IMG/VR virus record: IMGVR_UViG_3300048849_000076
Span: 1 to 64,000 of that record
DNA length: 64,000 bases
Strand: one strand, 5' to 3'
Source: a virus
Shown: piece by piece, positions 11,201 through 63,790 of the stretch
Position numbering within the stretch: position 1 is the stretch's first letter
Layout: each line of letters opens with the position of its first letter
Program-made: the position numbers and the translations under genes
Notes under the pieces: model-generated
What the model was told of the DNA's origin: nothing
Databases searched by the model: none
The model's input: the letters and a program-made list of their open reading frames with translations, nothing else

Positions 11201-11986
11201 CACCAGAACGGTTTACCTGATAAGAACATCGGTTCCTACACACGCGTTGGCGGGGTCGCTGTAGCTCCTGCCAATGCGAGGTACGCCCAAATCTTCTTCC
11301 GTTGCATGGGCCACTCCGCTACCTATGGTACGGACAGCTATACATGGTTGGCTCATCCTTATTTCGGGGAATGCCTGCCAAACCAGACTGAACTGTCTAA
11401 CTGGTCGAGCACCGGCCTGACCATCATCACCAGTGGCAACATTGTTACTGGAGCAGTCACTGCTGACAAGATCGGTGCTGGACAAGTCACTGCTGACAAG
11501 ATGAACGTCACGAGCCTGTCGGCAATCTCTGCCACACTCGGATCGGTCAACATCTCCAATGCGGTAATCGGATCTCTCCAGGTCGGCAGCTCAAACATCT
11601 CCCCCGGTGCGGTTACCAACGTCAGCACGGCGACTTCGAGTGAGACCAACGGTATTGGGCCGGGGGATACGTTGCAACGTGTTGCAACGGTTTCGTCTAA
11701 CCCGACTGGAAATCCGTGTATCGTCATCCTGACATTCAAGATTAAGAGCGACGATAACACAAAGACCCCTATGGGAGCGGCATTGATCAAGCGTAACGGT
11801 AACACTCTGCGTACCTATATCACCAAGGCCCCGGTGACCGACGCTGAATATCATACGGTGCATATGATCGATAACAATCCGCCGAGTGGGAACAACACCT
11901 ACTCCTTCGACTACCGCAACAGTAGCGGCGCGACTATTGTCATTGTCAGTGACCCTGAAATTAGCTGCATCGTGTTCAAGAGGTAA
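2270..11986 (+). CDS. giant host-specificity/tail-tip fibre protein (gpJ-like N-terminus, FN3 array, four CBM-like modules)
   Basis: N-terminus GSKGAKKPTNTADSLF..ISEGPIMGL and the YTNNPAFVTYDL block parallel lambda gpJ. An FN3-like array (~4650-7310) is followed by four N(L/M)xPNxDFExGxxGW domains. Single 9717-nt ORF with strong GC3 bias. Confidence 0.95.
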   Translation: MTIQDISLRKLSGSKGAKKPTNTADSLFATDIVEALLGISEGPIMGLEDGGKSYLIGETNLQDQSGQNNFDNFELINYKGSEEGEEIYSRLGGFGASTSVGTELATDVEVIRNGQHTDIDYLDVRMVINQLVRQNDKGTFNHTGKFKVEYKRVSETNWHAVRTTTSLPPKVSEASFDTYYGDAGESDKISASPGDRPSYWSESEPVTTATSGIWFDKTRNNRPQILKEGQWVDPTGLSLSNGVWSWAEASSWGKDKRTKAFAAASSEGVKYEQGDYFLNTGTQQALFYNGSTFITAGSSLRPGGFGENGTGGSIEVKNGEIAITAKTTSPFPKEFRIPVPRVDEPYMLRITKTSPVDTTENFFSITWESFQEVTAQAYKFPALATTQLIARASEQFSSVPDFSGIYLGRIVRIPSNYNPVTRLYTGVWDLTWKLGYTNNPAFVTYDLVMNDRYGMNAYYPIVLNKMDIYEAGVWCDVRTASGKPRFTFNGLISDPRGGRDAINYLCGIFAGRFFDDGNGSGVIRIDRDGSPAMTFMPENVVDGVFTYSFTEISTRHNDITVSFTNENLGWQTDRRRVHDQDHIDQYGRIPHNFDAVGCTDEEEAIRRARYHMITGITETMMVNFKTNRQGLYLSPYDMILVADEDMEFGLSGRVKNVSGPRTVQLRDPLFLENGFAYQISFTLISDATDDFIIERRDLTPTYGALTQLTVTEDLPELPEDAVFTIEQINGDAAPIAFRVLSLNEIDGDPDNVDIQAIVMNRAKWLYVDGLVDTIAETLPSSIGQGRRPDPVGEIRVAAQEIQLNGRKVYDLQLEWDASPTKTVTYYRVRASRNNDAMNTMGEPGVTQFSWTDVPAGEYLFEITAMDAFGNESMPRQIEHRFIGDYRAVEAVLGLRMMDEPYETVFESQSPRFEWVKNAAPDHAGYVLQIRKLDGAVVREEPLAGEFYQYEYAKNVADNGVALRSFTVAIASKDQYGFLSPFQTLTVSNTAPAAPKWVYAQNSGVSSIIVDTNAPTERDFQNVIVHASTQQGFVPSESTIVYEGPNNNITIVIPGAKYYLRVGFSDTFSHADLNWYEEVAVEVKSIAGDTIAPEKPTGLAATSIILPTGEAETTWTWNQVPDLDLQGYVFEIKEGAGNWLDAFAPSNQFVTKSLPGVQFTVRVLAYDTSGNKSAFSDEFTYQVARDTVPPAVPTGLEATGTFNGVWLAWNANVEADFAHYELYEADTATPVPSPDAVATFTGLTGTTTYRGNLPASTTKSYFLRAVDTSGNKSAWSAVSTTSTLSLEGTQPAPAVPVAPTLSSVLVAQNDGGFIAKVTVSWPAVANASSYQVGVIRSGASETVLTAGTNSLEFDGLPGVTYTVHVRSVGNVGQKSAFGAAASITPTGDTVAPAAPVISTAQGGFNIAWLEWSLNTENDFDYYEVYQSTSNVAPAADATATYKVGSTALSVNDIAGPATVYFWVRSVDTSKNKSAWSAVASINVLSLSGTQPAPAVPTTLAATSSVVAVGTDFVAKVRVTWVASANSVSYEVGITRAGAAETLLPASTNSIEFDGVPGVAYTINVKGVNNVGTKGAATANITHTAAVDTTAPAVPTGLIITPGFEHLWLQWTRNAESDFSYYEIYESTTTTAPAAGAAASYVSSTNQLIRQGLAAGAVMNYWLRSVDFSGNKSAWSARVGATVGGLQTADLTGIIDATSVAAGLSIPGVGAALPATPFTATTPKTFYLTTTSVLYKQKLDGSGWIAQSDASLIVGKIVAGQIEVGAIGADQLAANAVRAKHILIGDPTNVIDRGWSKSDQTGWQFPSTVGFYEETATAFKGQFILAANGREHAISDTFEVTGGEGWYVEAYYNNTATEGAVVFLHTWAPGGTDTFQAAPIGTVKNAWAKAGGILTVPAGHTKANVYLVCDRAGGTTGTNTYWTKPLARRATGTILLENGAVTADKVTTGELITLSAQIKSATINNAHIISLDAGKITANTALLGSVTVSGTALSTVVTNAATGAQDPATRINAAVTKIDPGKVVISGASTLADWRGVSDTTTINGGKIEAQSIKTTSMVVGGFMANMVPNGDFEEGIVGWKILETAGSGIGFYSEAGGYSGGYKVVLNKAGGTGSTGVAISTVGFIPVEGGEQYELAGYAYTPGGSVNGFYFRVVWYDGNYGFLSYNSAAENGSTTGAWQRYSVQPTAPAGARFCTITIYNWTPSTQQYLAVDAVSLRRAVEGSLIVNGAITSDKVTTGELITLSAQIKNAIINDAHIANLSAAKLTAGSALAGSITVSGSALSTVASNAATGAQDPATRINAAATKIDPGKVTISGATTLANWRGVSDTTKIYGGSIETDTISARQIILTDNENLIQDSQFEQGIPSDIWSSNYPIYNGGTPGGPSTWLWAGASQTGKQCLVLDNGTDGGANLQVWIQTRDFIPVTAGDWLAWDISTNTNQNGLSSGLYYRIRWYTKDKAVASPELTDVIGNGTSPLNVWQKQSGKVQVPANATYCMVQVYHNNNSGSRYLFIDRISLRKAEGAELTVNGSIVAAHLTTTSAVITGTVQIADAIVSSAKIVSLDAAKIQASTVLSNTIRVAGSTGQNLGDIQNWATDPGTRINQANTRIDPGRIIISGGTSLSDWRGTSDTTKINGGNIETNSIRTRSLVIQATDANLITNGDFEDGMNGWAVDGVGSGNAMYLEGSGSSGTNALTLMRGTNTTSNGVNAINNYIFPVESGTVYEYTMMARCVSSAGLYMRVHWHDGAKNAISPNYTDVVANGAVPSNDFTRVGGQVTAPAGAKFARVQIFLWTAATNNYLVFDEVLFRKVLQGTSIQDGVITTFKIAAGAIWGDRIAGNAITGVHVAAGTLTADKAAFGTSANLIPNSDFGSGMTGWAAWFSGGTWNGPSLRTDTYGIATGSLEVLQSGAQSNGQFADVFPRNDSTGVANRFNVSGGGRYELSVYVYGHRSDYCRAHIEWRNANGDIITYSYWDGITHQNGLPDKNIGSYTRVGGVAVAPANARYAQIFFRCMGHSATYGTDSYTWLAHPYFGECLPNQTELSNWSSTGLTIITSGNIVTGAVTADKIGAGQVTADKMNVTSLSAISATLGSVNISNAVIGSLQVGSSNISPGAVTNVSTATSSETNGIGPGDTLQRVATVSSNPTGNPCIVILTFKIKSDDNTKTPMGAALIKRNGNTLRTYITKAPVTDAEYHTVHMIDNNPPSGNNTYSFDYRNSSGATIVIVSDPEISCIVFKR
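5821..7320 (+). repeat. tandem ~600-nt (double FN3-like) coding repeats inside the gpJ-like gene
   Basis: VD(T/F)S(G/K)NKSAWS recurs at ~6064, ~6661 and ~7258 (597-nt spacing). DT(V/T)xPAxP linkers lie at ~5822, ~6425 and ~7022. Copies have diverged at DNA level. Confidence 0.8.
8072..10700 (+). repeat. three tandem ~290-300-aa modules (linker + CBM/galactose-binding-like domain) inside the gpJ-like gene
   Basis: The block DKVTTGELITLSAQIK.A.IN.AHI...ATGAQDPATRINAA.TKIDPGKV.ISGA.TLA.WRGVSDTT starts at 8072 and 8953. A more diverged copy starts at 9848, and a fourth degenerate module runs to ~11370. Confidence 0.8.
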
Positions 11987-11989
11987 ATC

Positions 11990-12541
11990 ATGATTGACCC
12001 AAGCGACCTGCCTCCCCCCGAGTTTCCTGATGAAGGGGAGGTGCCTGTTGCACCTCCTATTCAACCTGCAACACCTGAACCAGATCCAGAGCCGGTTGTC
12101 TTGCTACCTGACGATGAGCCTGAACCCGTACCGGTCATTCCCGAGTATGAGGCATTTCACTATGTCTTCTACAAGGGCGGCATTATTAGTCAGTCAGGAA
12201 CCTGCTTCCCTGAAGGCATAGACATGCTGAAGGGCGACAATGAGGTTCTGCTGCTGGATCGGCCGCTAAGCGCCGACGAGCAGCGCGAGATCTACGTCCT
12301 GAATGGGGAGCTGACTCCCAAGCTAGAGTTTGCCGTTGAGCCCTCATTCTCAATTCAAATGGGGCAGGAGACGGCTATACCTGTTCCACCAGGAACATCG
12401 GTGACTTTCGAGGGACAGACGATGTCGATTGAGGATGGTCTGCTCGAGCTCGAGGCTGATCATGTGCTGACCTACAACATCACTCTCTCGCATCCTATCT
12501 ATCTTCCACGAACGATAGAGATCTCAGTCCATGAAGCTTAA
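11990..12541 (+). CDS. hypothetical protein (tail-fibre-adjacent)
   Basis: ATG lies 3 nt after the gpJ-like stop. Pro/Glu-rich N-terminus, no family recognised. Confidence 0.6.
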   Translation: MIDPSDLPPPEFPDEGEVPVAPPIQPATPEPDPEPVVLLPDDEPEPVPVIPEYEAFHYVFYKGGIISQSGTCFPEGIDMLKGDNEVLLLDRPLSADEQREIYVLNGELTPKLEFAVEPSFSIQMGQETAIPVPPGTSVTFEGQTMSIEDGLLELEADHVLTYNITLSHPIYLPRTIEISVHEA

Positions 12542-12929
12542 ACTCAGACCACCTTGTGCGACTGAAGACGATGTCAATGTTGAGCGTGATCGACGCCTGG
12601 CAGTTGGTTTTGAGTTTAGAGGAAAACTCTTCCAGGCGAGGGCGCAGGATCAAATCAACATGACCGGTGCTGCCTCCGCAGCGAGTATTGCCATGGCCAA
12701 CGGAGCAACCCCTGGCAACTACCGCTGGTCAGATCCAGATAACGACTTCAAGTGGATCTCGGCAGACAACAGCCAGGTTGTAATGGATGCCCCAACCACC
12801 ATCCAGCTGGGCCTCGCAGCTATCAAGTTTGTCGCTGCACACACCATGGCCGCACGAGCGGTCAAGGATATGATCCTTGCCGGCGACTACGTCGCAGATG
12901 CTTCCTCCAATAGCTACTGGCCATCATGA
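12531..12929 (+). CDS. hypothetical protein, possible tail-fibre assembly/chaperone-like
   Basis: Overlaps the previous stop by 11 nt. The pattern GFEFRGKLFQ...W..ADNSQV loosely recalls DUF4376-type domains (weak, from memory). Confidence 0.55.
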   Translation: MKLKLRPPCATEDDVNVERDRRLAVGFEFRGKLFQARAQDQINMTGAASAASIAMANGATPGNYRWSDPDNDFKWISADNSQVVMDAPTTIQLGLAAIKFVAAHTMAARAVKDMILAGDYVADASSNSYWPS

Positions 12930-13105
12930 GCAAAAAGCGGAACGCCGGCATTATCGCCTATGGGACTGAAGAGGATCGCGAGAAGCTCGCGGTCTTGGCT
13001 GACACCTACAAGATGTCAGGAAGCGAGCTCATCATCAAGATGATCCGCGATCGGTTTAACATGCTGTATGGTGATCAGCAGGCCACGAATGATTCAAAAC
13101 TCTGA
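12926..13105 (+). CDS. ribbon-helix-helix (Arc/CopG-like) small DNA-binding protein
   Basis: 59-aa ORF below the ORF-track cutoff. ATGA overlap with the upstream stop. AGIIAYGTEEDREKLAVLADTYKMSGSELIIKMIRDRF fits a strand-helix-helix layout. Confidence 0.55.
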   Translation: MSKKRNAGIIAYGTEEDREKLAVLADTYKMSGSELIIKMIRDRFNMLYGDQQATNDSKL

Positions 13106-13141
13106 TTGGACCTTGGGCTTCATCTCCGCCAGAGTCTCGGG

Positions 13142-13375
13142 ATGCAAGAGATCTACATCCAGCGCCGAGACAGGACCAAGAACATGGCTCGCTTCTACGC
13201 GATGTCCATCCAACCCAACCTATTCGGTGAAGTGTCCGTTGTGAGATCCTGGGGCCGGATCGGCACCCGCGGCCAGATGATGGTCAACTCATTTGCAAAT
13301 GAGGACCAGGCTCAGGCTCTGCTTCAGGCTCTGATGCGGGAAAAACTCCGCAAGGGTTACGCGAAAGTTCCATAA
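13142..13375 (+). CDS. stand-alone WGR-domain protein
   Basis: ARFYAMSIQPNLFGEVSVVRSWGRIGTRGQ...KGY matches the WGR signature. ATG 13142 is the first ATG in the ORF frame. Confidence 0.8.
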   Translation: MQEIYIQRRDRTKNMARFYAMSIQPNLFGEVSVVRSWGRIGTRGQMMVNSFANEDQAQALLQALMREKLRKGYAKVP

Positions 13376-13482
13376 GATAGATTACCTGATCTTCTGATGC
13401 ACTCTGCTGCTCCGTGCAGCAGACACTCGTGAGCATATGCGTTGTCTAGTTACCATATAATCGGGAACTAGGAGCAACCATC

Positions 13483-13821
13483 TTGACTACAGATCACGCC
13501 ACGAACTCCCGTCTTGAAAACGTCGAACGCTCCGTGAACACCCTGAGCGATCGCGTCGGAGACATTGCAAAGTTCATGGAGCGCCTCGTCACAATTGAGG
13601 AGCGCAACGGCTTCATGACTCAGAAACATGACGAACTCAAGAGCACTCTCAAGGAAGCCATTGCGGCTTTCACGGAGAAGAACGCTGAGCTCGAGAAGAA
13701 GGTCACGGCGATCAAGGAGCGGATGATCGGATTGATGGCGGTTTATTCAGTCATCACCAGCATCGCCGCAGTGGCTGCTCCATACATCCTGAAAGCAATC
13801 CAGGCAGGAGTCGCTCACTAA
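13483..13821 (+). CDS. coiled-coil protein with C-terminal membrane anchor (holin/lysis-regulator candidate)
   Basis: TTG 13483 with AGGAG 8 nt upstream. Heptad-rich helix followed by one TM segment MIGLMAVYSVITSIAAVAAPYIL. Lies directly before the endolysin. Confidence 0.6.
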   Translation: MTTDHATNSRLENVERSVNTLSDRVGDIAKFMERLVTIEERNGFMTQKHDELKSTLKEAIAAFTEKNAELEKKVTAIKERMIGLMAVYSVITSIAAVAAPYILKAIQAGVAH

Positions 13822-34171: not shown

Positions 34172-34337
34172 TCGGAGGTTTTAGCTCCAGTTCTGGTTTG
34201 TCTTCGGGCAATGCCTCGATCCTTTTTCCGAGATCTATGACCTCGTTGTAGCGCTCCTGATCCCAGCGGCCCTTCTCATTGATCGAGGCCAAGAGTTTGT
34301 CGCGCCGGATGATGAGTGTTTGACGTTCTGTGCTCAT
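34158..34337 (-). CDS. small hypothetical protein (59 aa), possibly leaderless
   Basis: ORF below the track cutoff. TTGCAA-N19-TATCAT lies 5 nt before the ATG. The stop lies inside the terminator hairpin. Confidence 0.35.
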   Translation of the reverse strand: MSTERQTLIIRRDKLLASINEKGRWDQERYNEVIDLGKRIEALPEDKPELELKPPRKGR

Positions 34338-34416
34338 GAGACATGATATGGGATTTCAGCCCCAGGTTTGCAACTCCTGCAGTTGAAGGTTACGTTTACT
34401 TGCCTCAGCCGTCCAG

Positions 34417-34462
34417 AAACAACGAAGCCGGCGACGTATGTCGGCCGGCTCTATCGTTTTGC
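34417..34462. terminator. terminator-like hairpin downstream of the regulator gene
   Basis: AGCCGGCGAC-GTAT-GTCGGCCGGCT (one bulge) with T-rich runs on both sides. Confidence 0.5.
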
Positions 34463-34557
34463 ATTTCAGGAGGAGAGTTCCCCGGAGTAACATATCCTGT
34501 TGCCAGTCTGGTGCTCGTCGGAACTCACTCACGATGCTGAAGTAGGTCTGGTACGTC

Positions 34558-34989
34558 CTAATTACGGACATTCGGCCTCCCATATAAATTGCTGTCGAAG
34601 GTTTGCATCAAGGTGTCGATAGACTGTTTCGTCACCTCGGAGATCGTGATCAACTGGCTAAGGCTGAAGTCATGCTGCCCAACTTCCATCCGTGCCAGGA
34701 CGATAGGGCTGACGCCAAGCTTCTCTGCGAACGCCCTCGATCCAGTCGCGCCTCGTGCCATGTTCAGGCGAATACCAATGGCGTGGTGCTGACGGGATAT
34801 AGGTAGGGAGTTTTCGCGGCGCTTCGGTCCCTTTTGTGTGGGCGTGTAATTCCGGACGATCTTGCTACGCTGGAAAAGCTTGCGGATGGTCTGATCTGAA
34901 CGCTTGTACTTATGGGCAATTTCGGCCACAGACATGGTGCTGTGCTCGAGATCATGAAGCGCACTGGTATGCCAACTGGGTGTAGTCAT
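34558..34989 (-). CDS. helix-turn-helix transcriptional regulator (two HTH-like segments)
   Basis: MSVAEIAHKYKRSDQTIRKLF, plus the XRE-like AFAEKLGVSPIVLARMEVGQHDFSLSQLITISEV. Monocistronic, flanked by long non-coding regions. Confidence 0.7.
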   Translation of the reverse strand: MTTPSWHTSALHDLEHSTMSVAEIAHKYKRSDQTIRKLFQRSKIVRNYTPTQKGPKRRENSLPISRQHHAIGIRLNMARGATGSRAFAEKLGVSPIVLARMEVGQHDFSLSQLITISEVTKQSIDTLMQTFDSNLYGRPNVRN

Positions 34990-35290
34990 CGTTTCTTCCT
35001 ATCCCCGCCTTACGGGGACCAATGCGTTGAAGGGATCATCTCATGCTCAATTACGTGGTAGGAAGATAGTCCTACACCTGGGTTGGTGGCAAGAGCGGCC
35101 ACAGGTTTATTTTCCCAGAGTGGGAGCAGTCCACGTTATCCACAGGTGGACGACGCGAATAGCACCAGCTCTAGCGATTAAGCTGTCAATGGTAATAGGG
35201 GCAATGGCCCGTCAGGCCCGCATAAACACTCGGTTAAGATGTTTTAACGGTTCCGACAATGACTCAAAAATCAATCACAAGAACTTTTAC

Positions 35291-35518
35291 TCAATTTAGA
35301 GCCTTGTGATACCGATCCACTATGTGGTTGTAAGTTATAGGGCTTTCGTAGCCGGCGCTCAGCAGCAAGCTGCAGAGCCGCTCCATCTTCTCGATCGTAG
35401 GAGCACAAGCTACCAGATCATCGTCCTCATAATGGAGGTCGAGTTCGCTGGCGAGCTCATTGATCACGTCCGTGATGGCAACTGCTAATTCTGGGGATAT
35501 CATTGTGGTCGTCATCAT
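35291..35518 (-). CDS. hypothetical acidic protein
   Basis: ATGA overlap with the upstream stop. 75 aa. Confidence 0.6.
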   Translation of the reverse strand: MMTTTMISPELAVAITDVINELASELDLHYEDDDLVACAPTIEKMERLCSLLLSAGYESPITYNHIVDRYHKALN

Positions 35519-36270
35519 TCGGGGTTGGCTCCTTTCAGTATGGACCCAGCGACCGTAGCCGTCTGGGAAACCTGTTTTTTCTTGGTTCCGTGAGCAGGAA
35601 AGCCAATGATAGCTCCTCGCTCACCTGGTCGCGCACAGGCCCCGCACTGCAGGCAATTCGTTTCAGTGTATGTCGCTGGGCAGACCGCGATACGGCGACC
35701 GCCAGGCGTATGCTTCGGCAGCTCGTTCAGCCGAGCCCGATATTCGGTTTTCGTTTCGTCCTTCCCTTTGCCATAACTATCCGGAAGGACAACTACAACA
35801 TTAAGGCCGTGATGTGCCAGCTCGTCAGCGTGACTGACATTGTTGGCGGATAGATTAACTGAGAAACCGAGGTCTCGAGCGAGCTTGAGTGTTTCAATGT
35901 TCTCATCGGTCGGCGGCTTATGAGTGAACGCTATTACTGGCCTACCTCGGTTGGCCTTTGCAAGCCTCAACATTTGCTCGCGATCGATTTCGTCACCGTC
36001 ACCAGGCAAATCTCCTGCTTGACCGTAACGCCACATCTGCCGCTTTGGCAACTGCTCAACATCCTTCACAAAAGTTTGGAAGTCTCCCCCGACTTCCCCT
36101 CTGTCGACCTTACCCCAGAAGATCGACATTGGACCGTATTCCGCATAGCAACCACCACTTCCTTTTAACGGGCAAGAGTCAGGGCAGGTGGACCTTGCCG
36201 ACGTGGATGCCGGCATTGGTCCAAGCTTCTGATTACGGCTGATTTTTGTGAGACTGTAGAACATGGGCAC
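35515..36270 (-). CDS. Cys-cluster conserved phage protein (GP88-like?)
   Basis: GGAGGG SD. CPDSCPLKGSGGCY near the N-terminus and CPATYTETNCLQCGAC near the C-terminus. Family name is from memory only. Confidence 0.6.
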   Translation of the reverse strand: MPMFYSLTKISRNQKLGPMPASTSARSTCPDSCPLKGSGGCYAEYGPMSIFWGKVDRGEVGGDFQTFVKDVEQLPKRQMWRYGQAGDLPGDGDEIDREQMLRLAKANRGRPVIAFTHKPPTDENIETLKLARDLGFSVNLSANNVSHADELAHHGLNVVVVLPDSYGKGKDETKTEYRARLNELPKHTPGGRRIAVCPATYTETNCLQCGACARPGERGAIIGFPAHGTKKKQVSQTATVAGSILKGANPE

Positions 36271-36282
36271 TGCCCTCCAGGC

Positions 36283-36310
36283 AATAAAAAACCCGCCTCA
36301 GCGGGCGGGT
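36283..36310 (-). terminator. intrinsic terminator
   Basis: On the minus strand, ACCCGCC-CGCTGA-GGCGGGT is followed by TTTTTTATT. Confidence 0.8.
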
Positions 36311-36489
36311 TGATTGAGGAAGGCTCTGAGCCCTCGGTAGGTGTGAAAGCGCCTAAGTCGGCCGGTCGCTTTGTCCTTGTGGACCCAAGCGTCCCAGCCA
36401 TATCGAAGTGGAAGGCGCATACGAAAAAGGTCCCTCACAGGGACCATCTCTTGTGTGCCAGGTGCTACGACAAAGATCATTCGCGGCAC
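36298..36489 (-). CDS. hypothetical protein
   Basis: 63-aa ORF ending inside the terminator hairpin. Confidence 0.5.
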   Translation of the reverse strand: MPRMIFVVAPGTQEMVPVRDLFRMRLPLRYGWDAWVHKDKATGRLRRFHTYRGLRAFLNQPAR

Positions 36490-36773
36490 AGCTCGTGCAT
36501 GATCGGATTGTCGGAATAATCAGCGACGACATCCTCGTCATTCCCATGGACTAGCCATAGGTCACCGACAAAGACTCCCGCTTGACGGAACCGAAGTTGA
36601 GTCAGGTCTGTCTGAGCTACGTCTGACGCAATGGTGTCGTAGTCTGTGCTGCGTTTCACAGGCCACTCCTCACCATCAAATACGGAAACCTGATAATTAG
36701 CACGCAAAGCTCTTTCGATAATCTTTCGAACAATGTCTTGCTCGATCTTCGGCATATGACTCGGGAACCCCAT
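36477..36773 (-). CDS. hypothetical protein
   Basis: 98-aa ORF starting 3 nt after the PAPS-reductase-like stop. Confidence 0.6.
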   Translation of the reverse strand: MGFPSHMPKIEQDIVRKIIERALRANYQVSVFDGEEWPVKRSTDYDTIASDVAQTDLTQLRFRQAGVFVGDLWLVHGNDEDVVADYSDNPIMHELCRE

Positions 36774-36776
36774 GGT

Positions 36777-37517
36777 TCATGCTCCTGTGATTTGTTGAAG
36801 AGTCATCGGTACCCCCCGCCGCGGCATCATCATCGTGCGACCTATGCGGTTCTCGATCTCTGAGTATCTGGCGAGAAGGTGAGGGTTGTGTTTGGCGGCG
36901 ATCTTGAGATCACTGTCGCTCGACATGATACAGAAGACACAGGATAGCCTGGTCATACCGAGGGAATATGCAGGGTGCGGCGTCTGGCCAGCGCTGCGGA
37001 TCTCCTCCCAAACTTGGTCGAGGGTCAGATGCTGGATCGGCAACCAGTCGTACCAAAGCCGGCCGGCGAGGCTGTTACCCTTGCTGAACTTGAGCGACTG
37101 CTTCTTGGCTCGGTTCGGACTCTCCTCCGACCGGAGCCCCATACAGTTGACGACCAACCCCTTGAAGCGAGAATTTGCCCTCAAGTATCGGCGGATTTCA
37201 CGCTCGATTGGGCCACGTTTGAGGTCGCTGGTGCATTGTCGCTGCTGTGGCGACGGGAACATGCCCCTGTGCTCGACCATTTCGAGGAAGGTCTTGTTTT
37301 CGTTCTTGCAGATGATGAGCGGGAGATCCCCGATCGTTGATTTTATGTGATCGACAACACCTGGCCACTCGACCTCACCCAAATTAGCGTGGATCACGAC
37401 GAGCTGGTCGGCTGGGATAATACGGCGCAGGACAGAAGTCATCGCCTGACTATCCTTGCCGCCGCTGTGGTTGATGACGAAGAGGGCTCCGCGATCGACA
37501 AGCTCGCTAGGTGTCAT
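36777..37517 (-). CDS. PAPS reductase-like PP-loop ATP pyrophosphatase family protein
   Basis: ATG 37517. PP-loop FVINHSGGKDSQAM. C-terminal LSCVFC pair. Confidence 0.8.
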   Translation of the reverse strand: MTPSELVDRGALFVINHSGGKDSQAMTSVLRRIIPADQLVVIHANLGEVEWPGVVDHIKSTIGDLPLIICKNENKTFLEMVEHRGMFPSPQQRQCTSDLKRGPIEREIRRYLRANSRFKGLVVNCMGLRSEESPNRAKKQSLKFSKGNSLAGRLWYDWLPIQHLTLDQVWEEIRSAGQTPHPAYSLGMTRLSCVFCIMSSDSDLKIAAKHNPHLLARYSEIENRIGRTMMMPRRGVPMTLQQITGA

Positions 37518-55300: not shown

Positions 55301-55315
55301 CAGTACACTATACTC
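55301..55315. promoter_or_regulatory. 15-bp palindromic motif copy (inverted orientation)
   Basis: CAGTACACTATACTC is the exact reverse complement of the copy at 55400. Confidence 0.6.
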
Positions 55316-55414: not shown

Positions 55415-55436
55415 GCCCCTCCACCCCCACTGGTAC

Positions 55437-55472
55437 GAACCCGAACCCGAACCCGAACCCGAACCCGAACCC
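55437..55472. repeat. perfect hexanucleotide tandem repeat (GAACCC)x6
   Basis: Six uninterrupted units read directly. Begins 8 nt beyond the stop of the minus-strand gene at 55480. Confidence 0.95.
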
Positions 55473-55479
55473 GATCCTG

Positions 55480-56366: not shown

Positions 56367-57095
56367 TTAGGAGGCGAGGGCCATCGGTTCGGCTGCGGTG
56401 GTGGCATTGACCACCATGGCCGTGAGTTGCTCTTGAACCATGGCCATGTCCTCGACACTCAACCGAGTGACGATGTGGGCGAGCACCTGCATCATGTCGT
56501 CGCGACTCGCATCGGCAAGCGCCCCGATTGCGGCCTCTGCCGGCGTGCGTTCCGGCTTGGCGGAAGCGGCGTCTTGCGCCTTGGCTTCTGCATCCTTTGC
56601 GGACTCTGCATCGGCTTCCAGCTTGGCAGCGGTGGCTTGCGCCTCTTGTGCTGCATCGGCTTCGTCGTTGGCCTTCTTTGCGGCAATCTCTTCAAGAGAC
56701 ATGCCGGCAAGCGGCCCATAGGCGTTCTTGCCGCCAACATCGATCACGCTCATATGGGCGTTGATCATCAGGATCACGGTATCCAAGGCTTCATCAATGG
56801 CCATGGCGCGAATGTCGTCCCATGAGCGATTGCCCATGAAGAGGGGATTGTGTCGCGCCTTTTCGGCCAGCGACCACATGTTGTCGAAATTCTTGGATGA
56901 TTTGACATCCTTGCCGAACACTGCCGTGGACATGTTCTTCTTGCTGACGCCCTTGGCCATAGCCAGCATGGACAGGCCCATATACCGCTTCCAAGCCGCC
57001 TTTTCGGCGTTGCCTTGTGCGTCAATGTCCATGGCCGCGATACGATCAGCAACCGTCTTGACCGCGTATCCGAGCACCTTAGTTTCCGTTGTCAT
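56367..57095 (-). CDS. hypothetical Ala/Lys/Asp-rich early protein
   Basis: ATG 57095. The upstream part of the track ORF consists only of the GC palindromes. Confidence 0.6.
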   Translation of the reverse strand: MTTETKVLGYAVKTVADRIAAMDIDAQGNAEKAAWKRYMGLSMLAMAKGVSKKNMSTAVFGKDVKSSKNFDNMWSLAEKARHNPLFMGNRSWDDIRAMAIDEALDTVILMINAHMSVIDVGGKNAYGPLAGMSLEEIAAKKANDEADAAQEAQATAAKLEADAESAKDAEAKAQDAASAKPERTPAEAAIGALADASRDDMMQVLAHIVTRLSVEDMAMVQEQLTAMVVNATTAAEPMALAS

Positions 57096-57114
57096 TTCCG
57101 TTTCCCTTTCCGTT

Positions 57115-57153
57115 TCCCCCGCGGGGGAGAGTTGAACCATCCCCCGCGGGGGA
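57115..57153. repeat. two tandem TCCCCCGCGGGGGA palindromes (copies 3 and 4) in a 5' leader
   Basis: Exact 14-mers at 57115-57128 and 57140-57153. They are followed on the minus strand by the direct repeat GGAAACGGAAA before the ATG. Confidence 0.85.
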
Positions 57154-57438
57154 GACCAGAGAGAGGACACACCTCTCCCGGCAGGCCGCGAGCCTTTGGC
57201 CCGCTTCCCTCGTCGATCTCTCGATCAACTGTGATTACTCTATTGTTCCAACACCTGGATTGGAACCGAAGGGTACCACCTAATTATCTGATAGAATTGA
57301 GCTATTTGGCCTTAATGGGGTCAGACAAACTCTGGGAAATTTTTGAGTTTTCCGACTGCTATCATAGGCCTCCGAGCCGCGTTTCGATGACCTAAAGATA
57401 CTTGCACCACGGTTCTGAGCGCCACCCCTGAAGTGCGT

Positions 57439-57453
57439 GAGTATAGTGTACTT
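57439..57453. promoter_or_regulatory. 15-bp palindromic motif copy overlapping a TTGCAA hexamer
   Basis: GAGTATAGTGTACTT. TTGCAA at 57452-57457 is followed 18 nt later by CATAAA. Lies 68 nt upstream of plus-strand ATG 57521. Confidence 0.55.
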
Positions 57454-57520
57454 GCAAAATGCAGTCCGTTTAGCGCATAAAGCCCCTCAAACCTGAGCGT
57501 GTGCACCGAGACTCCCATAT

Positions 57521-58066
57521 ATGATACCGGATTTAGAGGTCTTTGGACCCTGCGCCCCAGCTGGCAGAGATATCGAGCCATTAGAACTTCGATACAAACC
57601 AAACTCGCGGCAAGAACTCGACGACGCAGGCATCGCAGGTCTGAAGAGCTATCTTGAAAGTGCCAACCTGCTCGAAATCACACGCGTTCTGAACCAGAAA
57701 ATGGTGATCCTGTGGGTCATGGACATCAAGGGAATTATCCACTTCGCTTTTGAAGAGATCGTTCACGCATCCAACGGCGAGTACCTTATGCCCTATGTAC
57801 GGGAGAATTACGCGGTAGAACAGTTGAAGGACGATATCGAAAAAGGTGTAGTCGGTCGTCTAGGTCATCCTTCTCTTTTGGAAGGGAATAGAGAGGCTAG
57901 GATCGGTGGAGAAATTGTCCTCAGATTGGAAGACGGTGACGAGACACTATGGAAGATCAACCGGCGTTCGGGGAGGTATGGGCAAAGGCCTCATCAGACG
58001 GATGAACATTTGAAGGCTGTTCATTCACTTTTGACCTACAAAGGGCTATATTTGGGTCTTGAATAG
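57521..58066 (+). CDS. hypothetical protein, gene 1 of the low-GC plus-strand island
   Basis: 181-aa ORF. Third codon positions are visibly A/T-richer than in neighbours. C-terminal core GRLGHPSLLEGNREARIGGEI..WKINRRSGRYG. No family recognised. Confidence 0.7.
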   Translation: MIPDLEVFGPCAPAGRDIEPLELRYKPNSRQELDDAGIAGLKSYLESANLLEITRVLNQKMVILWVMDIKGIIHFAFEEIVHASNGEYLMPYVRENYAVEQLKDDIEKGVVGRLGHPSLLEGNREARIGGEIVLRLEDGDETLWKINRRSGRYGQRPHQTDEHLKAVHSLLTYKGLYLGLE

Positions 58067-58094
58067 CGGTTTGATCCCGCAGAAGGTATCAAAG

Positions 58095-58754
58095 ATGAAC
58101 CTGGCCAACACTTCGCCAAAGCAGCTTAGAAGGCTTTCTGCCTCGATTGCTGAGAGCGATGAGACGCTCGCAGAGTTCCTAAGTTCACTACAAAGCACGC
58201 TCCTAGCCTTCCCGCTCGACAAGGGCGCGTTCCGCGACGAGCTTTTCATGTTGGGCGCCGACTTGTTTAACGCGGGAGTCTTGGCTGCGGCGGGCGAAGC
58301 GCGCATCGCACACGTTCTCGCAGCGGTCCCGGCTCCAACTGTGGAAGTGTTCCTAGAAGGAGTCGATGAGACCTTCGCCAAATCGGTACGTCGAGAGATC
58401 AACATCACTTCTCATACCGCTGAGAAGCTCGCACCTTCGGCTGTCGGGTCAATGTACAGGTATTTCGGCGACATCGCACTTCAGGGAGTGGGTGTAAAAT
58501 GGGCCGATTTACTTTCGGGTCGAGATCAAGAGGTGGACCACTTCTTACCAAAAGCTATGTACCCGCTATTCCCTTGGACCGGCTCGAGAGGTTTACGAAA
58601 GCATTACACCCGCCTCAACAAGGAGCAATTGAACCTGTTGATTGAAGATCTCAACACTGGTGGGGTCACCTCATTGAGCCCAGAGCTTCAAGAAAAGCTT
58701 CAGAGCCTAGGCATCCTTACTCTCATCTCCTCTGCCGGAAGATTCTCAAGATAA
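58095..58754 (+). CDS. hypothetical protein, gene 2 of the island (HNH-like DHFxPK segment)
   Basis: ATG 58095 with GAAGG SD, 28 nt after the gene 1 stop. Helical Ala/Leu-rich N-terminal half. QEVDHFLPKAMYPLFPW segment. Confidence 0.7.
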   Translation: MNLANTSPKQLRRLSASIAESDETLAEFLSSLQSTLLAFPLDKGAFRDELFMLGADLFNAGVLAAAGEARIAHVLAAVPAPTVEVFLEGVDETFAKSVRREINITSHTAEKLAPSAVGSMYRYFGDIALQGVGVKWADLLSGRDQEVDHFLPKAMYPLFPWTGSRGLRKHYTRLNKEQLNLLIEDLNTGGVTSLSPELQEKLQSLGILTLISSAGRFSR

Positions 58755-58778
58755 AGGCGCCTCAAGGGCGCCTTTTGA
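58754..58778 (+). terminator. intrinsic terminator 1 of the island
   Basis: AAGGCGCC-TCAAG-GGCGCCTT followed by TT. Confidence 0.75.
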
Positions 58779-58785
58779 TGATCGG

Positions 58786-58809
58786 AACGGCACCTGGAGG
58801 CCGTTTTTT
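58786..58809 (+). terminator. intrinsic terminator 2 of the island
   Basis: AACGGC-N8-GCCGTT followed by TTTT. Confidence 0.7.
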
Positions 58810-58823
58810 GACGATGCGGATGA

Positions 58824-58952
58824 CTACAGAACCGCGATGCTGATGTGCGTAAACAGCCACCAAAGCCCCCAGATTGTGCCTCCAATTGACGCCAGAGCCC
58901 CAATCGCGGCCCAGATCATGAGAAAATAGAGCAGATTTCCAAGTCTAGTCAT
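58824..58952 (-). CDS. possible 42-aa two-TM peptide
   Basis: MTRLGNLLYFLMIWAAIGALASIGGTIWGLWWLFTHISIAVL. Starts 1 nt after the preceding stop. Confidence 0.3.
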   Translation of the reverse strand: MTRLGNLLYFLMIWAAIGALASIGGTIWGLWWLFTHISIAVL

Positions 58953-58953
58953 G

Positions 58954-59025
58954 TCAGTTGATCCAAAAGGGGATTGAGAAGAACGCGACGAAAACCGCGA
59001 TGATGACGAAGTCCTTCCAGCTCAT
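58954..59025 (-). CDS. possible 23-aa TM peptide
   Basis: MSWKDFVIIAVFVAFFSIPFWIN. ATGA overlap with the primase-helicase stop. Confidence 0.3.
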   Translation of the reverse strand: MSWKDFVIIAVFVAFFSIPFWIN

Positions 59026-61430
59026 GCGCCGACGCCCAGGTAGAAGAGTTCGTTGCCCTGCCGGATGTCGATCTGGAACGGCATGCTGCCACTCAGCTCC
59101 TTCATCAGCTTCGTGAATTTCGTGATGTTGGCGCGGTTGGACGAACCGGTCGCCAGCATGAATTGCCAGTAGTGAGTATGCAGCTCGGCCAGCGAGATCG
59201 ACTGCTCGGCGCCCCACTTCAGAACCGTGCCAGGCGACGTCAGGAAGTGACGGACGGTGTTGTTGTCCGCTGCCATTGCGTCGATCAGAGCCAGGCACGA
59301 CGTCGGGACCGTGAACTTGCCCATGTCCATCAGCCGCTTGTAACCCTGGACCGCCCAGGCGACGATTGCCTCCCGCTCGTGCTCGAGGATCTGGCTGTCG
59401 AGATCGATAATCCGCTTCGACGGATCGACGCGATTGTTGAACTCGAGGATCAGCCAGCGACGATTGAAGCCTTCCGAACTGTCGCGCGTCTTTGGCAGGA
59501 AGTTCGAATTGAACCAGTGAGCCGCTTCCGGCTCAAAGCTGAACGGCTGGGCATTCTTGAACTGCACCGTGAGCTCTTCGCCCGAGATGATCTTCTTGAA
59601 GATATCGCCTGGGATGGGCCGGGACTCCGACAGCTCGCCTGCGAAGTTGATGACCTTGCCGAACATCTCGGCCGGCAGGAACTTATCGCCCCAGTCGGTC
59701 GGCGCGATCGACGAGCTCGAGCCGTAAGGCACCAGACCCTTCATGATCGACTGGAGGACGGACTTGCCGGAACCAGCCTGGCCGAACAGCAGGAACGCCA
59801 TCTCGAAGAACGGCGCCTTACCCATCAGGGAGACGCCGATCGCCTCCTGCAGGGCCAACAGCTTGTCACCATAGTCTGCGTCCGAAGCCCAGCAATCGTT
59901 CAGGAAGGCATCAAACATCGGCATGTGGCCGGCCTTCTCGGGTGTGTACCGGTAGGGCAGGGTATAGGTCATGCCGTAGTCTTCGGCGTGGGCGACCAGC
60001 TCGAGGTTCTCGGTCAGATAGCCATTGGCAAAGTTCACGCCCTTGACGTACGAGTTCCGGAGCGGAGCTGCAGCGAGCGCCTTCATCACCTTCAGAATGC
60101 CGGTGTGGTCACCCTGGCGGCGACCTGCAGGATAGGAGCCGTAATTCTCAGCGATGATCTTCAGCAGCTCAGCTTCCTGGCACTGAACCCAGGCGGCGCC
60201 CCGCCACTGCCAGAACTTCGAGGCGTCATAGCGGACGTCGCCATAGACCTTCAGGAAGTTGAGGCAGGCTTCGGCCAGCTCGGCGTGCGTCTCACCCGTG
60301 ATATCGCCGCGGCGAAGGGTCAGCAGCTGCTTCTTCAGGTCAGTCAGCGACAGAACATTGGTCTGCTGGTTGGCGATGAACTTCAGGACCATCGCTTCCT
60401 CGAGCGGTCCCATTGTCGGATTGGCGCGGACGATCCGGTCCAGAGCGACATTCACGGCATTCATCCGGCCTTCCGACCGCGGATCTGGGTGACGCTCTAC
60501 CTCAGCCGCAAGATAATCGAGGATCATCTGGACGGACCACGTCTTGTCGTCTTCCGTGAAGGAGAGGCCGAGTTTATCGAGATCTTCCTCGCTGAGACCT
60601 TCGTCCCAACCCAGCGGCAGAGCCTTGCGAGCCTCCGACGTCACATCGCGGACGAGAAACTCGACGACCTTCGCCTGAGCCTTGTCGACAGAGAGTGGAT
60701 CCCCGACAACCTTCTCGACGAAGTTGTCGACCCAGGCCTTCATCTCACCGAGAACCTGGAGCAGCGAACGCTCGCCGCGAAGCACAGCCCGGGCCAGGAG
60801 GCCCGCCATCCATACCATTGTCGCGTCACGAGCACCGGCTGGCACGTAGCTGGCACTCTTGTTGCCACCACCGGTGGACACCGCAATGCCGGCCTCGCGG
60901 AGGGCGCTCTTCAGTACCCGTTCGAAATCCATCGGCAGGGGAGGGGCGTTCTTGGCGATCTCCCAGAGGTTACCATTCGCCGTATAGGGCAGCTTGGTGT
61001 CCGGATGGATCGAGGGCGGCAGCACGAACTGGGTGCCCTTCGACAGGATTTCGCAGATCATCGAGCCGTCTTCGGCCTTGATACGAGCCGTCCGCTCGCC
61101 CGACCAACGGTAGACCTGGACTCGACCCTTGCGGCCGACGCGGTGCCACGGGCTCGGCGGCAGGATGCGGTCGAGAACCTGCAGGACAACCGGATCTTCG
61201 GAGTCGATGTCGATTGCGACGAGGCCGGCGCTCGGGCCCATCGGCAGACCGATGTTTCCGGATGCGAAGGCATTCAGCCAGCCCTGCTGCTCTTCCTTGG
61301 TCGGGAAGGCGTCGGAATACGTTTGCCAGCGAGGGATCGCGGGGCGCTTATTTTCGTAGATCAGCGGGATCGCGGGAAGGCCAGCGTCCCAATACAACTG
61401 AGCATGGCTTGCGAAGATGTTACTGACCAT
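59022..61430 (-). CDS. bifunctional prim-pol primase / SF3 (P4/D5-type) helicase
   Basis: N-terminal prim-pol block GLVAIDIDSEDP. C-terminal Walker A FGQAGSGKSVLQS with a D5/P4-like context. 802 aa. Confidence 0.88.
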   Translation of the reverse strand: MVSNIFASHAQLYWDAGLPAIPLIYENKRPAIPRWQTYSDAFPTKEEQQGWLNAFASGNIGLPMGPSAGLVAIDIDSEDPVVLQVLDRILPPSPWHRVGRKGRVQVYRWSGERTARIKAEDGSMICEILSKGTQFVLPPSIHPDTKLPYTANGNLWEIAKNAPPLPMDFERVLKSALREAGIAVSTGGGNKSASYVPAGARDATMVWMAGLLARAVLRGERSLLQVLGEMKAWVDNFVEKVVGDPLSVDKAQAKVVEFLVRDVTSEARKALPLGWDEGLSEEDLDKLGLSFTEDDKTWSVQMILDYLAAEVERHPDPRSEGRMNAVNVALDRIVRANPTMGPLEEAMVLKFIANQQTNVLSLTDLKKQLLTLRRGDITGETHAELAEACLNFLKVYGDVRYDASKFWQWRGAAWVQCQEAELLKIIAENYGSYPAGRRQGDHTGILKVMKALAAAPLRNSYVKGVNFANGYLTENLELVAHAEDYGMTYTLPYRYTPEKAGHMPMFDAFLNDCWASDADYGDKLLALQEAIGVSLMGKAPFFEMAFLLFGQAGSGKSVLQSIMKGLVPYGSSSSIAPTDWGDKFLPAEMFGKVINFAGELSESRPIPGDIFKKIISGEELTVQFKNAQPFSFEPEAAHWFNSNFLPKTRDSSEGFNRRWLILEFNNRVDPSKRIIDLDSQILEHEREAIVAWAVQGYKRLMDMGKFTVPTSCLALIDAMAADNNTVRHFLTSPGTVLKWGAEQSISLAELHTHYWQFMLATGSSNRANITKFTKLMKELSGSMPFQIDIRQGNELFYLGVGA

Positions 61431-62020: not shown

Positions 62021-63790
62021 ATGTACCGTAACGACTATCTGACCGATTTTCGCTCACAACTGCGCCAGCGATTTGCGGAAGACTCGGTCAATATGTCTCA
62101 GTCGGAGTGGATCGAAAGAAATACCCACCTCCGCAAGAAGCAGTTTAGCTTCGACGGGTACGAGTTTCAGCGCCAGATCGTCGACGACATGCACCCCGAT
62201 ATGTATGTTATCAAGTGCTCCCAGATCGGTCTCACCGAAGTCCAGCTCCGCAAATTCGCGGCTTTCCTAACCCGCACGACAGCGATCAACGCGATCTTCT
62301 CCCTACCCACTGACGTGATGTTCAAGCGCGTATCGCAGACCCGTTTCGGGCCGCTGATCGACGGCGAGCAGGTCTTCAACATGACCAACGGCGCCAGCAA
62401 GCCAGTACGGTCAGTCGGCCTCTACCAGATCAACCAGTCCTTCGGGTTCTTCACCGGGGGTAAAGAGTCGGACGCGACCTCTATTAACGCGGACGCTCTG
62501 TTTCAGGACGAAATTGACCTGGCTGATCAGGAGATGCTGGCTCTATACCAGTCACGTCTTCAGGGTTCGGACTACAAAATCACGCAGTCATTCTCGACCC
62601 CGACCTTCGAAGGTTTCGGCGTCCACAAGGGCTTCCTGGCCTCTGATCAGCACGAATACATGCTGAAGTGTGAAGCCTGCAACCACTACAACATCCCATA
62701 TTTCAACCCGAAATTCGTGTGCCTTCCAGGCCTGTCCGGAGATATCAATGACCTGTCAGAAATCGACTCAGAACTTGCTGACAAGCTGGACCTTGGAGCC
62801 GCCTACATTCGCTGTGAACATTGTGGCAAGCGTCTTAACACCGCTGATCCTTCGCTGCGGCATTGGGTGCCTCGCTATCCTGGGCGCCGCACTCGTGGTT
62901 ACCGCGTAAGTCCATTCTGCGTCCATAGGATCGCCAAACCCAGCTACATCGTCGACCAGCTGGTCAAGTACAAAGCCAAGGACGCGATCCGCCGCTTTTA
63001 CAACACCGTGCTGGGAGAGGCTTACAACGACGCCAGCGCCCGCCTCAGCGAGGTCGACATCCTCGCCGTCATGAGAGGCGAGGGGAAGGTTGAGATCTCC
63101 AACGAGCCGGTGTTCTTAGGTATCGACGTCGGCCTGACATGTCACATTGTCCTGGCGCACATGGGGCAGGGGTATCCGATCGTCTTCGACTTCCGCCAGG
63201 TGACGGCTGATGTCCTCGTCGATGAGGTCAATGCGATCCTCTCGACCTACAATGTCATCGGCGGTTGCATGGACCGCAACCCTTACACACCTCTTGCGAA
63301 CGAGATCCGCGACCTGTCAGCGGGCCGCATCCTGCCGGTGGAATATGCCTCGTCGACAGGTGCCGCACCTGTTCAGATGATGAACGACGAACTCGACCAG
63401 CTCAGCCACGTTCGTGGCAACCGCACGACGATGATTGACACCGTGGCCGGCGCCATCCGCAAGCGCAAGGTGTCCATGTACGGCTACGGTCGGATGCAGC
63501 GCCTGATCCTCGATCACCTGCAGGACATGGTCCGAATGGAGCACGAGGTCAACGAGAAGACGAAGGAAGAGATCCCGGCCCGCTGGCAGAAGCTGACCGG
63601 CAATGACCACTTCTTCCACGCCCTCGCTTATCTGTTCTTCGCCATGCGGGTGAACACGACCATCGACTTCCACCAGGAAGATCCGCGTACCCAATTCACC
63701 CATTCAAACATCATCATTCCGATGGGAAATGCAGCAAGGCTTGGCGTGAACCGCAAGCATCGCAGCCCCATATCTCTCGGACGAATTTAG
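62021..63790 (+). CDS. terL: terminase large subunit, GpA family
   Basis: KCSQIGLTE Walker-A-like block, QDEIDL Walker B, CEACNHY...CEHCGK zinc ribbon. 589 aa. Confidence 0.88.
   Translation: MYRNDYLTDFRSQLRQRFAEDSVNMSQSEWIERNTHLRKKQFSFDGYEFQRQIVDDMHPDMYVIKCSQIGLTEVQLRKFAAFLTRTTAINAIFSLPTDVMFKRVSQTRFGPLIDGEQVFNMTNGASKPVRSVGLYQINQSFGFFTGGKESDATSINADALFQDEIDLADQEMLALYQSRLQGSDYKITQSFSTPTFEGFGVHKGFLASDQHEYMLKCEACNHYNIPYFNPKFVCLPGLSGDINDLSEIDSELADKLDLGAAYIRCEHCGKRLNTADPSLRHWVPRYPGRRTRGYRVSPFCVHRIAKPSYIVDQLVKYKAKDAIRRFYNTVLGEAYNDASARLSEVDILAVMRGEGKVEISNEPVFLGIDVGLTCHIVLAHMGQGYPIVFDFRQVTADVLVDEVNAILSTYNVIGGCMDRNPYTPLANEIRDLSAGRILPVEYASSTGAAPVQMMNDELDQLSHVRGNRTTMIDTVAGAIRKRKVSMYGYGRMQRLILDHLQDMVRMEHEVNEKTKEEIPARWQKLTGNDHFFHALAYLFFAMRVNTTIDFHQEDPRTQFTHSNIIIPMGNAARLGVNRKHRSPISLGRI

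Follow-up and report, generated by a model that had tools for sequence, protein, structure and literature searches.

A paired g1-g2 cassette as a candidate conflict module of phages and bacteria

Phage morons and exclusion cassettes are classically represented by rexAB of lambda and by old, tin and fun of P2. CapRel(SJ46), which is borne on a prophage, combines a RelA/SpoT-type toxSAS domain and a variable C-terminal sensor domain in a single polypeptide. Here we describe g1 and g2, two adjacent plus-strand genes in a 64,000-nucleotide stretch of viral DNA (positions 1 to 64,000 of IMG/VR record IMGVR_UViG_3300048849_000076; hereafter, the window). Our reading, in which we place about even confidence, is that g1-g2 is a self-contained, mobile two-gene conflict module of the toxin-antitoxin or abortive-infection kind, carried here as a phage moron. 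In the window phage, its most likely use would be excluding competing phages or mobile elements, or manipulating the infected cell; the mechanistic details are less certain than the general class of the module.

Like the classical morons, g1-g2 is an autonomously terminated insert that is transcribed against or apart from its neighbors, has a GC content below that of the phage and recurs in unrelated phages; the proteins themselves are unrelated to those of rexAB or old/tin/fun. The resemblance to CapRel(SJ46) would be one of design, as both are carried on prophages and both appear to join a conserved effector to a rapidly diversifying C-terminal region that would set which trigger is recognized; however, g1 and g2 are two proteins and have no detectable homology to CapRel. 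Rosmer (RmrT/RmrA) and ShosTA are likewise compact two-gene operons found on mobile DNA and in defense islands, in which one partner is enzyme-like and well conserved and the other evolves faster, and one g1-g2 pair adjoins RmrTA itself. Here again, g1 and g2 differ in having no sequence or fold kinship with these systems, and g2 lacks the peptidase/helix-turn-helix (HTH) or DprA-like domains of their antitoxins. Finally, in toxin-antitoxin-chaperone (TAC) systems, which combine HigBA, MqsRA or HicAB with a SecB-like chaperone, the chaperone link serves phage sensing (bioRxiv 10.1101/2024.02.24.581848). A C-terminal extension of the antitoxin-like partner provides the tie to the chaperone in TAC systems, and in two g2 homologs a GroES domain is fused to the N-terminal domain; unlike TAC systems, g1-g2 has no third chaperone gene, its GroES is not SecB-like and occurs in 2 of 17 loci (the window not being one of them), and the toxin family is unrelated.

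Systems of this general kind are known, whereas its components and adaptor design appear to be new. We found no significant component match in PADLOC-DB v2.0.0 (the best E values were 0.052 for g1 and, to a short motif, 0.0084 for g2), and a search of the literature on GroES-fused antitoxins or defense modules and on Rhizobium phage RHph_X66 returned no description of the g1-g2 family. The most recent family library used was NCBIfam release 20.0 (June 2026), while PADLOC reached to 2023 only.

Pairing and genomic contexts of g1 and g2

The recurrence of the pair beyond the window, which the initial annotation had proposed as a check, proved to be complete: g2 lies directly downstream of g1 in all 17 independent loci with readable context, at a spacing of -4 to +30 nucleotides (nt). 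In each of these loci the two genes are small, adjacent and co-directional, as in a type II toxin-antitoxin operon. No conserved gene follows g2 across loci, and in the window the terminators come directly after it. The genome and metagenome locus scans were based on a single narrow peptide pattern, with five loci each; viral-contig scans with A3, P0135 and P0010 yielded nothing further, and tblastn against plasmids found Tistrella pTM3 only. A metagenomic protein, P0084, may represent a g1-g2 fusion, as hhalign matched the N-terminal domain of g2 weakly to its residues 210-276 (E = 0.005).

Insertions of the unit were seen in five or more lineages of phages, prophages or satellites, often on the strand opposite to their neighbors. 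Within the clade of the window phage (loci L001/L002 and L004/L005), it occupies the same place, with p267, a 267-amino-acid open reading frame (ORF), on one side and a small membrane ORF and the primase on the other. In a podovirus-like prophage it is flanked by capsid and lysis genes on the opposite strand, and in another prophage by portal and terminase genes. In the 120-kb Rhizobium phage RHph_X66, the unit opposes its neighbors and adjoins NAMPT and NMNAT/NUDIX genes of nicotinamide adenine dinucleotide (NAD) salvage; tblastn with g1 in deposited phages found RHph_X66 only, and not Seuss, JWF or other relatives of the window primase. A satellite-like element with capsid, protease and Ea47 genes carries the unit in more than 100 sequencing runs. 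Neorhizobium vignae CCBAU 05176 (L003/L010, at a contig end) holds a decayed phage fragment of the window's clade, which keeps early genes, p267, the control region and an intact g1-g2, together with just the last 73 codons of the primase. The unit is further found in a region resembling an integrative and conjugative element (ICE), and it stands alone amid housekeeping genes, as an islet of just the two genes, in Roseibium, Hoeflea and a Rhizobiales isolate.

Defense genes are recurrent neighbors of the pair. In Rhizobium leguminosarum (L006), LmuA, LmuB and LmuC of Lamassu lie on one side of the unit, and a DpdF-like helicase and Dsr1 on the other. The unit adjoins RmrT and RmrA (Rosmer) in Agrobacterium tumefaciens (L007), DruD and DruE (Druantia) in L009, the methyltransferase of a type III restriction-modification system on the Tistrella megaplasmid pTM3 (L023) and a PDC-S47-like gene in L020. 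This recurrence is a count over five loci, a small sample, rather than a calculated enrichment. The defense/exclusion or toxin-immunity role suggested by the initial annotation is supported by these neighbors and by the insertion of the pair, as an autonomous unit, into five or more phage or satellite backbones that are unrelated to one another.

The Druantia-associated locus is also of note for its layout (L009 6814-20549, GCA_900469875.1). Here the pair stands between an unassigned 406-amino-acid gene and a run formed by a 909-amino-acid gene (no PADLOC match), DruD and DruE, at about the point where a type I Druantia operon would be expected to have its upstream genes. This may be an insertion into Druantia or a variant of it.

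The g1 and g2 proteins

As the initial annotation had stated, g1 could be placed in no family. We found no family match for g1 in Pfam, PHROG, NCBIfam or PADLOC, no relevant Pfam match when 76 diverse members of its family were scanned singly, and no match of the family profile to PDB sequences at E ≤ 10. The family itself is large: an exhaustive profile search recovered 488 clusters (50% identity) at E ≤ 1e-3 and 260 at E ≤ 1e-10, nearly all of them stand-alone proteins of 170-190 amino acids, and the members sampled were metagenomic "hypothetical proteins". Across the 76 diverse members, G9, G115, H116, G130, S150 and R152 are invariant and E22, P27, W65, E78, E79, P117, R127, E131, W144, G151 and G154 nearly so, forming the motifs LW..., A-x-E-E, K-L-G-H-P-S-L, A-R-I-G-G-E and S-G-R-Y-G, a pattern that is typical of an enzyme. 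AlphaFold2 modeled g1 as an alpha+beta protein with a predicted local distance difference test (pLDDT) score of 91.9 and a predicted template modeling score (pTM) of 0.88. Foldseek searches with this model found nothing credible in PDB (best E = 0.23, template modeling (TM) score < 0.25), and in BFVD only unnamed proteins (best E = 0.019, TM 0.35). Hence neither these structural searches nor the profile libraries (Pfam, NCBIfam, PHROG and PADLOC) place g1 in a known toxin superfamily. Assignments of g1 as RNase T1/barnase-like (from an H-E-R-H spacing), RES, ADP-ribosyltransferase, 2H phosphoesterase or HEPN (Rx4-6H) were considered and are not claimed, as none has a profile or fold match.

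The g2 protein is less conserved than g1, with a mean column identity of just 24% over 17 homologs, and it is modular: a conserved N-terminal domain is joined to a C-terminal half that differs between lineages. The N-terminal domain was modeled by AlphaFold2 at a pLDDT of ~80-92, and residues L3, F28, L36, D42, G44, D48, G54 and G61 are invariant in the eight closer homologs. It has no relative in Pfam or PDB, and Foldseek returned generic or designed helical bundles only. With g1 and g2 both examined by profile searches, AlphaFold and Foldseek, neither protein showed homology to a phage housekeeping function or a known family, in agreement with the initial annotation.

Past residue ~108, g2 proteins are unrelated between lineages. 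The C-terminal half of the window protein is shared with L004 only. In the bacterial locus L009, the N-terminal domain carries a complete Cpn10/GroES domain (PF00166, E = 2.9e-36), and in L008, also bacterial, a half-degenerate one; neither locus has groEL alongside, and the window g2 has no match to PF00166. Many other loci have Lys/Arg-rich C-terminal tails, and in L018 and L023 there is essentially nothing beyond the N-terminal domain. None of the 17 g2 proteins contains a DNA-binding domain of the HTH, ribbon-helix-helix (RHH), AbrB or Phd/YefM kind recognizable by Pfam. The GroES fusions suggest that some alleles may be coupled to GroEL. We also considered a polymorphic toxin and rejected it, as there is no N-terminal secretion or trafficking domain and no C-terminal toxin domain, the tails are often short, basic or absent, and no conserved gene lies downstream.

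The variability of the C-terminal half can be seen at close range by comparing the window with L004, which is almost the same phage. Their primase, terminase and neighboring proteins are 98-99.9% identical in amino-acid sequence: primase 99.9%, terminase 99.8%, p156 98.7%, p70 98.6% and p197 98.2%. Identity is 97.6% for p42, 95.6% for g1, 88.9% for the N-terminal domain of g2, 82% for p267 and 36.9% for the C-terminal half of g2. In nucleotides, the two are only 43-64% identical over precisely 58400-58750 and again 97% identical at 58800. Such sharp edges point to cassette exchange or intense diversifying selection on the C-terminal half of g2, and the divergence would indicate an arms race. 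A second sharp trough, at 68-82% nucleotide identity, covers 56600-57100, the N-terminal half of the minus-strand p267, which has no family match. This trough lies on the opposite side of the shared control region from the C-terminal half of g2, and p267 variation could be coupled to variation in that half of g2.

From these features we propose the following mechanism. The g1 protein would be the effector, an enzyme with a previously undescribed fold, whose active site would be built from the invariant loops GH116P, R127-I-G-G-E131 and S150-G-R152-Y-G and whose activity may be toxic. The helical N-terminal domain of g2 would bind g1 and restrain or direct it, possibly neutralizing it, and the fast-evolving, exchangeable C-terminal half would confer specificity, either by sensing a trigger or as a bait. 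The GroES domain captured by some bacterial g2 proteins would dock on GroEL. The resulting phenotype would be defense or exclusion.

Features, composition and control region of the unit

The coordinates of the unit and of the features around it are given in Table 1. Both ORFs were found where the initial annotation had placed them, as were the 28-nt spacer between them and the Shine-Dalgarno sequence of g2 (AGAAGG, 8 nt 5' of its ATG); a longer g2 start (TTG at 58059) is not conserved in homologs. The two tandem intrinsic terminators that had been described as closing the unit also fold as claimed, with hairpins at 58753-58775 and 58785-58806 that each lead into a U tract. A simple terminator scanner overlooked both hairpins, because their stems take up part of the U runs. 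Hairpin 1 is U-rich on both strands and so may also end transcription of the convergent minus-strand operon.

Table 1. Positions of the g1-g2 unit, its predicted control elements and neighboring genes in the window
Feature	Position	Strand	Description
Control region	57171-57520		Read on the plus strand; separates the leftward early operon (p267) from g1-g2 and is highly conserved among related phages
GAGTATAGTGTACTTG motif	57439-57454	plus	Imperfect palindrome of 14-16 nt, GAGTAY-N3-GTACTY; abuts the -35 hexamer
Putative sigma-70-type promoter of g1-g2	57452-57481	plus	TTGCAA (57452-57457), 18-nt spacer, CATAAA (57476-57481)
g1	57521-58066	plus	181 amino acids, from the ORF list; alpha+beta protein, conserved core of the module
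g2	58095-58754	plus	219 amino acids, from the ATG common to homologs
g2 N-terminal domain	58095-58418	plus	~105-108 amino acids, seven short helices; in 17/17 homologs
g2 hypervariable C-terminal half	58419-58754 (including stop)	plus	Contains DHFLPK; AlphaFold2 pLDDT < 50
Terminator hairpin 1	58753-58776	plus	From RNA fold and sequence; stem begins within the g2 stop codon; U tract
Terminator hairpin 2	58785-58809	plus	From RNA fold and sequence; followed by U6
Primase	59022-61430	minus	41-44% identical to primases of Caulobacter phage Seuss and Achromobacter phage JWF
Large terminase	62021-63790		

The unit had been described as a low-GC island, and for the pair as a whole this held. The GC content of 57521-58754 is 0.513, against 0.570 ± 0.020 for other windows of 1,234 nt (z = -2.87), and is the lowest among all such windows of the 64 kb. 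The signal comes mainly from g1 (z = -3.2; GC content at third codon positions (GC3) 0.52), whereas g2 alone is unremarkable (z = -1.4; GC3 0.60); typical genes of the window have a GC3 of 0.65-0.85. Among the other loci, the GC content of the pair is under that of its flanks in 15 of 16, by up to 0.146. Elsewhere in the window, the other stretches of lowest GC content are 34300-36970 and 10940-13520 (0.515-0.528); the ORFs at 35027-36773 have a GC3 of 0.48-0.55 and may be further accessory genes or morons.

The 350 nt upstream of g1 had been noted as AT-rich, non-coding DNA. Their GC content is indeed low (0.506, z = -2.1), but the region is not featureless, being strongly conserved in relatives: a four-way alignment of related phage-type loci has a mean column identity of 74%, with long near-invariant blocks. 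Positions 57285-57395 are ~95% identical to the Neorhizobium vignae locus, while g1 is only 59% and the neighboring proteins 57-59% identical there. An Rfam scan of the region gave sub-threshold noise only. This non-coding block may encode a small RNA, serve as a leader or act as regulatory DNA. It holds a possible 26-codon ORF (ATG 57317-TAA 57397, MGSDKLWEIFEFSDCYHRPPSRVSMT), and the 3' end of this frame is not conserved in L001/L003.

A repeated motif overlapping a TTGCAA hexamer was confirmed as well. The 16-mer GAGTATAGTGTACTTG was found five times in the window when ≤3 mismatches were allowed, the expected number being 0.13, and its 14-mer core eight times at ≤2 mismatches (20506, 24639, 42844, 43954, 55302 on the minus strand, 55400, 57439, and 61960 on the minus strand), with equivalent positions conserved in L001, L003 and L004. 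This phage-wide palindrome probably serves a phage regulator as its operator, or else belongs to a promoter specific to the phage. The hexamers of the putative promoter and their spacing are kept in L004 and L001; a strict consensus promoter scanner made no call at this site. We infer that g1 is preceded by a promoter of the sigma-70 type and, next to it, an operator at which a phage regulator would bind. The cassette would then have its own promoter and terminators, yet, as the promoter lies inside a conserved, motif-bearing control region, its expression would be wired into the phage program. The view of g1-g2 as a horizontally acquired, autonomous cassette accordingly stood in part: the unit is mobile and has its own promoter-like region and terminators, but it is syntenic within the clade and not recent. 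This synteny and the position of the promoter indicate that the unit was acquired long ago and has since been domesticated.

Further features were seen on the p267 side of the control region. The motif copies at 55302 and 55400 face one another, and between them, at 55436-55474 in the intergenic/early region, is a perfect hexanucleotide repeat, (CGAACC) x 6.5; it has another length in L004, where the alignment of this 100-nt bin contains 17 gaps. The leader of the p267 operon (57100-57165, minus) contains two self-complementary copies of CTCCCCCGCGGGGGA, which could also base-pair together as a single long hairpin, followed by a tandem repeat of TTTCCGTTTCCC. The CTCCCCCGCGGGGGA copies are kept in L001, L004 and L003, the last of which has three, and their central positions show compensatory changes from CG to TG/CA and CA/TG. 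The true start of p267 (ORF 56367-57170, minus) is probably not the listed GTG but an ATG near 57098 (MTTETKVLGY).

The window is most of a phage contig of ~82 kb, and g1 and g2 proteins identical to those of the window are encoded on one Joint Genome Institute (JGI) contig of 82,442 nt. Judged by its genes, the window phage is a Seuss-like siphovirus of an alphaproteobacterium. An N4-like identity, guessed from an ORF of 3,238 amino acids, was ruled out, as this ORF encodes a central tail fiber J-like protein and the primase points to the siphoviruses Seuss and JWF. Megablast of the g1-g2 locus against deposited phages gave no match, and the phage has no close deposited relative. It is plausible that g1-g2 is the sole multi-gene plus-strand unit in the minus-strand block, as had been claimed; the other plus-strand ORFs have no family matches and overlap chains of ATG-started minus-strand ORFs. 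Convergent with g2, at the end of the primase operon, is a hydrophobic ORF of 42 amino acids (MTRLGNLLYFLMIWAAIGALASIGGTIWGLWWLFTHISIAVL, 58824-58952, minus), which is kept as an ORF of 42-44 amino acids in L001 and L004.

Competing explanations and meaning of the module

Several points weigh against a toxin-antitoxin or abortive-infection module. No homology points to toxicity or enzyme activity of g1, and because its fold matches nothing, its chemistry cannot be assigned. The g2 protein has no recognizable DNA-binding domain of the sort usual in type II antitoxins. As PADLOC v2.0.0 holds no related model, the defense role is guilt by association over a modest number of loci. The evidence for the P0084 fusion is weak, and a frameshift or an assembly error could have produced it. 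Several homologs in lytic-type phages beside counter-defense-like genes, as with NAD salvage in RHph_X66, fit an anti-defense role equally. And since the pair is syntenic in its clade and driven from a conserved phage control region, it could serve the phage's own program.

The last two points lead to the main rival, which we consider unlikely, that g1-g2 serves counter-defense or host takeover. Here g1 would modify or destroy a host component or an immune signal and g2 would be its targeting subunit, with the variable C-terminal half tracking fast-evolving host targets (GroEL, nucleic acids or defense proteins); the bacterial copies would be on prophages or mobile elements that also bear defense genes. 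Such a role is consistent with expression from an early-type control region beside the early operon, with the NAD-salvage neighbors in RHph_X66, which are typical counter-defense cargo, and with the hypervariability of g2 as target tracking, and the GroES fusion could hijack GroEL. However, three bacterial loci are bare islets in housekeeping genes without mobile-element context, and five loci are in or beside bona fide defense systems on chromosomes. In addition, the Neorhizobium fragment has retained g1-g2 intact while its primase has been reduced to a remnant of 73 amino acids, which suggests that the pair benefits the cell.

We regard as improbable a purely selfish addiction cassette, that is, a toxin-antitoxin pair acting by post-segregational killing, which would persist since its loss kills the carrier. 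The tight two-gene operon, the conserved partner, the low GC content and the scatter over phages, a megaplasmid, an ICE-like region and chromosomal islets would all be expected of one. Yet addiction leaves unexplained why hypervariability and domain swapping are localized to the C-terminal half of g2 and why the pair repeatedly adjoins defense systems, and it would have little obvious value in lytic-looking phages.

The initial annotation had also pointed to a likeness between g2 and HNH nucleases, and g2 could on that basis be a degenerate His-Me finger (HNH, PtuB-like) nuclease effector, with g1 as its regulator or immunity protein. This now seems very doubtful. The segment is present: QEVDHFLPKAMYPLFPW resembles E.DHF.PK..P...W of PtuB-type HNH proteins, and the likeness to PtuAB (Septu)/TIGR02646 extends over g2 residues 146-161, with DHFLPK at 146-151, conserved in L004. 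There are also weak, short matches to PADLOC PDC-M01B (E = 0.0084 over 18 residues) and to a PHROG HNH family (E = 0.21). However, g2 matched no HNH profile of Pfam or NCBIfam (PF01844 kin and TIGR02646) at E ≤ 1 and no PDB sequence. The segment contains no Cys, so that the Cys ligands of PtuB-type proteins are missing along with the downstream Asn/His context, and g2 has no ATPase partner like that of PtuAB. In the AlphaFold2 model, based on an alignment of three sequences only, residues 108-167 have a pLDDT below 50 (24-44 in the region of the motif), with coil at D146-H147 and no beta-beta-alpha element. As the motif occurs in only 2 of the 17 g2 proteins, the others having GroES domains, basic tails or nothing in its place, it cannot be the conserved activity of the module.

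A regulatory or housekeeping pair of the phage, such as a clade-specific transcription or replication accessory factor, is similarly hard to credit, for although the position between the early operon and the primase is kept in four related phages and the shared control region bears the phage-wide operator-like motif, the nearest deposited relatives (Seuss, JWF and other primase relatives) lack g1, the pair occurs in unrelated phage types and in non-phage bacterial loci, and its GC content is anomalous.

Returning to g1-g2 as a conflict module, a bolder form of this reading can be put forward, which we hold only as a speculative proposal and think rather unlikely as a whole. In it, g1 would have both a new fold and a new chemistry and would found a widespread, unrecognized family of defense or exclusion systems; g2 would be an adaptor built of modules, exchanging or capturing bait or sensor domains at its C-terminal end, with the capture of GroES linking it to GroEL in such a way that phage interference with this host hub would release the effector; and the cassette would be used by bacteria and phages alike against their competitors. 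The window and L004, being near-isogenic and differing almost only in the C-terminal half of g2 and part of p267, provide a natural experiment for mapping specificity.

If correct, the conflict-module reading would enlarge the known set of bacterial and phage conflict systems by a two-gene system that is new and fairly widespread (488 clusters at 50% identity, nearly all labeled "hypothetical"), with an effector fold that has no structural precedent. Its design would be unusual, in that a conserved adaptor domain has its C-terminal half swapped at a high rate, including the capture of the host co-chaperonin GroES. It would also offer a handle on exclusion and competition in the poorly studied phages of rhizobia and other alphaproteobacteria.

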